The notes beneath the pieces were generated by a model that was given only the letters and a program-made list of their open reading frames with translations, made no database searches and was not told the DNA's origin. Shown here piece by piece: positions 1 through 565 of a stretch of 565 bases of DNA; positions within the stretch are counted from its first letter, which is position 1; the number at the start of each line of letters is the position of its first letter. Made by a program: the position numbers and the translations under genes. Origin of the DNA: a phage; sequence record EF517097.1, one strand, 5' to 3'.

Positions 1-441
1 GTTCCGGCTGCTGACCGTGTGTTCTACTGTGACCCAGATAGCTATTCTGCGATTCTGGCAGCACTGATGCCGAACGCAGCAAACTACGCTGCTCTGATTG
101 ACCCTGAGAAAGGTTCTATCCGCAACGTTATGGGTTTTGAGGTTGTAGAAGTTCCGCACCTCACCGCTGGTGGTGCTGGTACCGCTCGTGAGGGCACTAC
201 TGGTCAGAAGCACGTCTTCCCTGCCAATAAAGATGAGGGTAATGTTAAGGTTGCTAAGGACAACGTTATCGGCCTGTTCATGCACCGCTCTGCGGTAGGT
301 ACTGTTAAACTGCGTGACTTGGCTTTGGAGCGCGCTCGCCGTGCTAATTTCCAAGCGGACCAGATTATCGCTAAGTACGCAATGGGCCACGGTGGTCTTC
401 GCCCAGAAGCTACTGGTGCAGTGGTTTTCAAAGTGAAGTAA
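1..441 (+). CDS. 10A: Major capsid protein 10A, C-terminal ~147 aa (5'-partial; the gene starts upstream of the window); stop TAA at 439-441
   Basis: Frame 1 is open from nt 1; the ORF track's 19..441 is the same frame, started at an internal GTG. The translation (VPAADRVFYCDPDSYSAILAALMPNAANYAALIDPEKGSIRNVMGFEVVEVPHLTAGGAGTAREGTTGQKHVFPANKDEGNVKVAKDNVIGLF...AVVFKVK) matches my recollection of the T7 gp10A C-terminus except for about three residues. Codon usage (GGT, GCT, CGT, CTG, GTT) is that of a highly expressed E. coli-adapted gene. Confidence 0.93.
   Translation, partial: VPAADRVFYCDPDSYSAILAALMPNAANYAALIDPEKGSIRNVMGFEVVEVPHLTAGGAGTAREGTTGQKHVFPANKDEGNVKVAKDNVIGLFMHRSAVGTVKLRDLALERARRANFQADQIIAKYAMGHGGLRPEATGAVVFKVK
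423..429 (+). promoter_or_regulatory. -1 programmed ribosomal frameshift slippery site G GTT TTC (Val-Phe codons, third and fourth from the end of 10A)
   Basis: The heptamer GGTTTTC is 10 nt upstream of the 10A stop, in register G|GTT|TTC in the zero frame, and reads GGT TTT in the -1 frame. This is where I recall the T7 gene 10 frameshift being mapped, and the -1 frame downstream encodes the 10B tail. Confidence 0.75.
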
Positions 442-565
442 TGCTGGGGGTGGCCTCAACGGTCGCTGCTAGTCCCGAAGAGGCGAGTGTTACTTCAACA
501 GAAGAAACCTTAACGCCAGCACAGAAGGCCACACGCACCCGTGCTGCTAACAAAGCTCGAAAGGA
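423..565 (+). CDS. 10B: Minor capsid protein 10B C-terminal extension, read in the -1 frame after programmed frameshifting from the 10A frame (3'-partial; continues past the window end)
   Basis: The -1 frame (codons at positions divisible by 3) has its nearest upstream stop at TAA 372-374 and no stop from 375 to 565. From GGT 423-425 it reads G F Q S E V M L G V A S T V A A S P E E A S V T S T E E T L T P A Q K A T R T R A A N K A R K, matching my recollection of the T7 10B-specific tail (FQSGVMLGVASTVAASPEEASVTSTEETLTPAQEAARTRAANKARK...) with about three substitutions. Confidence 0.85.

Follow-up and report, generated by a model that had tools for sequence, protein, structure and literature searches.

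The 565-nt window (the whole stretch of phage DNA analyzed here) very probably carries the programmed -1 ribosomal frameshift site of phage T7 gene 10, in a variant of T7. This assignment rests on sequence features, T7 identity and conservation among relatives that were observed directly, and no evidence inside the window contradicts it. The 10A/10B frameshift is known biology and was correctly recognized as such in an earlier sequence-only reading: the T7 record V01146 annotates a joined 10B, and the G_GU site of T7 gene 10 is named in a review (PMC5009743). The finding thus adds little to what is known of 10A/10B.

The 3' end of gene 10A and the slip site

The window aligned gap-free and collinearly over its 565 bases with positions 23564-24128 of T7 (V01146), with 97.5% identity. 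The top match in INPHARED was T7_AGU (97.7%), and no identical record was found in the phage collection. In V01146 the gene for the major capsid protein (10A) spans 22967-24004, and that for the minor capsid protein (10B) is a two-piece joined CDS with its end at 24162, followed by the Tphi terminator at 24210 and then by gene 11. Product lengths from these coordinates are 345 aa for 10A and 398 aa for 10B, in agreement with the two capsid bands of about 36 and 42 kDa expected by the sequence-only reading. The 0-frame product of the window matched the Pfam family PF21703 (Gp10A-like, E 1.8e-51), as a T7-type capsid C-terminus does, and residues 200-344 of the T7 major capsid protein 10A in PDB 2xvr (E 3e-90). 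T7 genes all lie on one strand. Two antisense ORFs, at 204-431 (75 aa) and 428-553 (41 aa) on the minus strand, were presumed to be spurious, lying opposite the conserved capsid gene. The features of the region are listed in Table 1.

Table 1. Features of the 10A/10B junction. Positions are those of the window, except in the last row, where they are given by locus.
Feature	Position	Strand	Description
3' part of gene 10A	1..441	+	Last 146 codons and TAA 439-441; from frame 1 translation and T7 annotation
Overlap zone	375..438	+	No stop in either the 0 or the -1 frame; preceded by TAA 372-374 in the -1 frame
-1 shift site G GTT TTC	423..429	+	Encodes Val-Phe, aligned with T7 10A residues 341-342
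10B-specific tail, -1 frame	429..565	+	45 codons up to the window end; T7 has 56 codons, then TAA
Predicted local hairpin, 12 bp, 5-nt loop	443..473	+	13 nt 3' of the heptamer; seen in both MFE and centroid folds, for the window as for T7
Small ORF annotated as "minor capsid protein" (10B tail)	838-996 in L003, L004 and L005; 834-974 in L007; 1109-1246 in L010		GenBank records

The heptamer GGTTTTC had a single match in the window, on the plus strand, where the 10A frame reads it as G GTT TTC; 0.07 matches per window are expected by chance, and 13 of 200 shuffled sequences contained at least one. It is identical to T7 23986-23992 and occupies the same homologous position. Nine nucleotides (AAA GTG AAG) separate it from the 10A stop, which begins 10 nt after the last base of the heptamer, so that the distance of 10 nt given by the sequence-only reading was essentially right. 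The zone in which both frames are open is of similar extent in T7 and most relatives (64-67 nt). Compared with the canonical X XXY YYZ pattern, the YYY Z part is present, with full A-site re-pairing of tRNA-Phe from UUC to UUU, while the X XX part is not, being G GU here, where re-pairing in the P site is weaker than at X XX. The Atkins 2016 review (PMC5009743) names G_GU UUC of T7 gene 10 as a -1 shift site and places it between the hexamer and the heptamer types.

As in T7, most ribosomes would read GTG GTT TTC AAA GTG AAG TAA and terminate, with the major capsid protein 10A as their product. The remaining few, put at about 5-10% for T7 in the literature, would move one base back with tRNA-Val and tRNA-Phe on GUU and UUC. 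After the slip tRNA-Phe would pair perfectly with UUU, and tRNA-Val would pair with GGU at two of three positions; judged from these pairings, tandem -1 slippage of the two tRNAs would be the most likely mechanism. The C at 429 would then be re-read as the first base of CAA, giving ...AVVF-QSEVMLGVASTVAAS... and the minor capsid protein 10B, with an extra tail of about 53 residues on the capsid surface. The translation from 429 agrees with the transframe sequence ...AVVF-QSEVML... anticipated earlier, and the tryptic transframe peptide expected from the fusion would be PEATGAVVFQSEVMLGVASTVAASPEEASVTSTEETLTPAQK. For T7 itself, gene 10 frameshifting of about 10% has been reported (PMC1635266), and 10B makes up 5-10% of the capsid subunits, with an unstructured surface tail that is replaced in T7 display vectors (PMC8923235). 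We infer from the literature that slippage itself, its efficiency and its dependence on the distal Tphi element would hold for the variant as well. The 10A/10B frameshift has reportedly been known since the T7 genome sequence of Dunn and Studier in 1983, and Condron, Atkins and Gesteland are reported to have dissected it in 1991 (cited through PMC5009743 and PMC1635266).

The slip site includes a run of four T (425-428), on which T7 RNA polymerase could slip, so that the longer product would arise from transcriptional rather than ribosomal slippage. Four residues are fewer than the homopolymer runs known to cause appreciable polymerase slippage. Furthermore, the unit conserved among relatives is the phased GTT TTC codon pair and not a longer T run, and the T3 group carries C CCA AAG, a classic tRNA-slippage motif. 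The Atkins 2016 review also classes T7 gene 10 under ribosomal frameshifting (PMC5009743), and we give transcriptional slippage almost no probability.

The -1 frame, the 10B tail and their conservation

The -1 frame contained no stop from 375 to 565, confirming that it stays open to the window end, while the other two frames after 441 contained stops, one of them at 511 and the other at 470 and 548. However, 19% of mononucleotide shuffles of 441-565 were likewise stop-free, so that openness alone is weak evidence, and the case rests on homology and conservation rather than on the open frame. Translation of the -1 frame from the re-read C at 429 gave QSEVMLGVASTVAASPEEASVTSTEETLTPAQKATRTRAANKARK, which begins with QSEVMLGVAS and ends with ANKARK. 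The T7 10B tail is QSGVML...AQEAARTRAANKARKEAELAAATAEQ followed by the stop, and the window tail was identical to it at 42 of 45 residues, which supports the earlier identification of this frame as the 10B tail. The tail also matched PHROG 12582, "head protein" (E 6.8e-22). Variable sites in the tails of T7, ESh6, N30 and Pila fell at -1 frame codon positions 1, 2 and 3 in the numbers 5, 5 and 14, a third-position bias indicating that the tail is translated in the -1 frame.

An early stop in the -1 frame or the absence of 10B similarity had been named by the sequence-only reading as observations that would count against it, and neither was found. Its description of the junction as intact holds for the junction and for 45 of the 56 tail codons; for the full 10B it exceeds the evidence in the window, which ends at 565, before the final 11 codons of the tail, the 10B stop and Tphi. 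Measured on T7, the window falls 34 nt short of the end of the 10B stop, and the CCCC of Tphi lies 180 nt 3' of the heptamer, 44 nt past the window end; from the window alone, neither a complete 10B nor the distal stimulator can therefore be certified. An intact Tphi would contain AACCCCTTGGGG. It is true that no 10B ORF appears in the ORF list, as had been remarked, but the reason is partly trivial since the listing omits ORFs running off the source end.

Residues 15-44 of the tail (window 471-560) had a sole match in the PDB, the N-terminal 30 residues of 8rcx chain A (VirS), DPEEASVTSTEETLTPAQEAAETEAANKAE. This stretch resembles an expression tag engineered from the T7 10B tail with altered charges, rather than a natural homologue.

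The comparative set comprised 80 IMG/VR loci (L013-L092) encoding relatives of the 10A C-terminus, with 75 distinct junctions. An in-phase N GTT TTC was found 6-18 nt before the 10A stop in 68 of the 75, as GGTTTTC in 63, AGTTTTC in four and CGTTTTC in one, A or C being tolerated at the first base. Extensions of at least 30 aa in the -1 frame were present in 78 of the 80 loci (median 53), compared to a maximum of 17 aa in the +1 frame. Two different cassettes were found behind GTTTTC: a basic tail of 40-55 aa with the motif LTPxQKAAxTRAxNKA, in 41 loci of several genera, and a domain of 91-100 aa ending in ...TRRTNTLYFKG...KLVVTN, in 27 loci. The T3-type loci carry a third domain, behind C CCA AAG. 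The presence of GTTTTC before unrelated cassettes points to selection on the site itself.

It is noteworthy that the basic tail motif is strongly conserved, although the tail is described as unstructured and dispensable. Three loci departed from the common arrangement: L044 has no slippery motif and a -1 extension of 4 aa, L049 keeps GGTTTTC but a stop shortens its tail to 16 aa, and L052 has GTC TTC with a -1 frame of 217 aa, apparently running into the next gene. In Salmonella phage Vi06 (L006 and L027) the junction is GTG GTT TTA AAG, with the C of GTT TTC replaced by A; this A creates an in-phase canonical T TTA AAG one codon downstream, by which the slip site may have been displaced or made stronger.

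Among the known systems, T7 gene 10 is the same gene, with an identical heptamer, the same 9-nt distance to the stop and most of the tail residues shared, and differs from the window by 14 G:C>A:T substitutions and by the part of its tail, stop and Tphi that falls past the window end. The Kvp1 and phiA1122 type (Berlinvirus and relatives, poly-U Phe) has the same in-phase G GTT TTC and the tail motif LTPxQKAARTRAANKA, but a different sequence between slip site and basic motif, a shorter tail of 45 aa and no ATG after the stop. For Kvp1, a 10A fusion was identified by mass spectrometry and the -1 shift was placed at TTTTC (PMC2579914). In T3, phiYeO3-12 and phiSG-JL2 the shift site is C CCA AAG (Lys codons), unlike the G GTT TTC of the window; the extension of T3-type loci is a domain of about 85-93 aa, Ig-like for T3 (PMC5009743), and in phiSG-JL2 the tail measures 45 aa and includes the basic motif.

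Substitutions and RNA structure around the junction

The 14 differences from T7 are at window positions 45, 111, 135, 233, 246, 309, 325, 348, 412, 436, 525, 531, 542 and 557, and all are G:C>A:T transitions (seven C>T and seven G>A). Nearly all natural relatives lack 13 of them; the remaining one, A525, is present in every relative and in T7_AGU. Natural relatives differ from T7 by G:C>A:T transitions, A:T>G:C transitions and transversions in roughly equal numbers. The exclusive G:C>A:T spectrum of the window therefore looks like that of a laboratory T7 line subjected to a chemical mutagen or to deamination; nitrosoguanidine-mutagenized T7 populations have been described (PMC8923235). A 38-nt pattern spanning G412A and G436A gave no exact match in the viral, metagenome or genome contig collections.

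Seven of the 10 changes in 10A are synonymous, suggesting that the lineage is still under purifying selection; the other three are G to D (233), A to T (412) and E to K at the last residue (436). In the tail-coding region, three of five substitutions (436, 525 and 531) alter 10B residues, as G to E, E to K and A to T, respectively. Two changes are close to the slip site. G412A, the Ala to Thr change of 10A, lies 11 nt 5' of the heptamer and was absent from all 18 relatives checked, while G436A lies in the spacer between heptamer and stop and affects both products (E to K in 10A and G to E in 10B). A436 occurs naturally in ESh6 and L014, where the whole arrangement is kept, so it is unlikely to be disabling.

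This load of mutations raises the alternative that the junction works poorly or not at all in the variant, owing to G412A, G436A or changes in the distal Tphi stimulator, which lies outside the window. There are 14 substitutions in 565 nt, most of those in the tail-coding region alter 10B, G412A is private among the relatives checked, and a heavily mutated lineage could tolerate the loss of 10B, since this protein is reported to be dispensable. On the other hand, the heptamer is unchanged, no stop was gained in the -1 frame, A436 and A525 are natural variants of phages that keep the system, and the synonymous majority of changes in 10A speaks for continuing purifying selection. As no sequence feature points to loss of function, we consider an impaired junction unlikely, and a functional T7-type frameshift site remains the preferred reading.

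The frameshift sites of E. coli dnaX and of IS elements (A AAA AAG) likewise involve tandem -1 slippage of bacterial ribosomes at a heptamer, but those sites come with stimulators close by, an SD-like element about 10 nt upstream or a stable hairpin or pseudoknot on the 3' side. In the window, no SD-like GGAG, GAGG or AGGA was found in 400-422, and the nearest predicted hairpin is 13 nt away, compared to 5-9 nt in the dnaX and IS type; the stimulator reported for T7 is a terminator sequence 180 nt downstream. This effect of the distal Tphi CCCC on the T7 gene 10 shift is long-range, and had no mechanistic explanation according to the 2016 review (PMC5009743). Variants with changes near the slip site could for this reason be useful test material.

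The stability of the window fold was not significant (z-score -0.9 against shuffles). Across 16 Teseptimavirus sequences, 95% of the cells of the predicted hairpin were pairable, through one-sided G-U/A-U changes only; no compensatory pairs were found among these 16 relatives, and the shuffle control was unsupportive. As the stem overlaps the codons of the conserved VASTVAAS, selection on the protein may account for the conservation of the stem. An Rfam search of the window returned no relevant family, just a sub-threshold chance hit to a miRNA. It is rather improbable that the hairpin is a real proximal stimulator acting together with the Tphi CCCC, and that G412A and G436A shift the 10B:10A ratio; if this were true, the hairpin and the private changes would provide a natural handle on long-range stimulation in T7 gene 10. 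Pairing of the GGGGG at 446-450 with the Tphi CCCC was also considered, and was rejected: relatives do not conserve the G run (they have CTAGGAG, CTAAGGG and CAGGAAG), whereas Tphi is nearly invariant.

Annotation of the tail as a separate gene

In GenBank, the 10B tails of ESh6, N30, Pila (with an annotated RBS), avDM11 and Yepe2 are annotated as separate ORFs, and PHROG 12582 matches the tail from its Met onward. These records correspond to a different reading of the junction, in which the tail is a small gene of its own: ribosomes would stop at TAA 439-441 and re-initiate at the ATG at 441-443 (TAATG), producing a free peptide of about 6 kDa. A Met within eight codons after the slip point is, however, present in only 19 of the 68 distinct GTTTTC junctions, compared to the -1 extension found in nearly all loci, and the ATG at the 10A stop is missing from Vi06, Kvp1 and AttikonH3. 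Moreover, the literature describes T7 10B as a capsid isoform of about 41-42 kDa that arises by frameshifting (PMC1635266, PMC8923235), and the Kvp1 10B identified by mass spectrometry is a fusion (PMC2579914). In the window itself, G436A also removes the sole SD-like element from which re-initiation could have benefited. Re-initiation at TAATG was therefore rejected, on comparative grounds and from the documented fusions of T7 and Kvp1, and we hold a separate gene to be very unlikely; a -1 frameshift fusing the tail to 10A is the reading retained. The change at 436 can be seen in window 434-443, where T7 has a GGAG two bases before the ATG, and where the variant has GAAG, with loss of the only SD-like element there.

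In many T7-like GenBank records, annotation pipelines even now detach the 10B tail as a spurious small "minor capsid protein" ORF that stands free and is not part of a joined frameshift CDS. PHROG 12582 appears to have been built from such tail fragments, since the first residue of its profile is the Met that follows the 10A stop.
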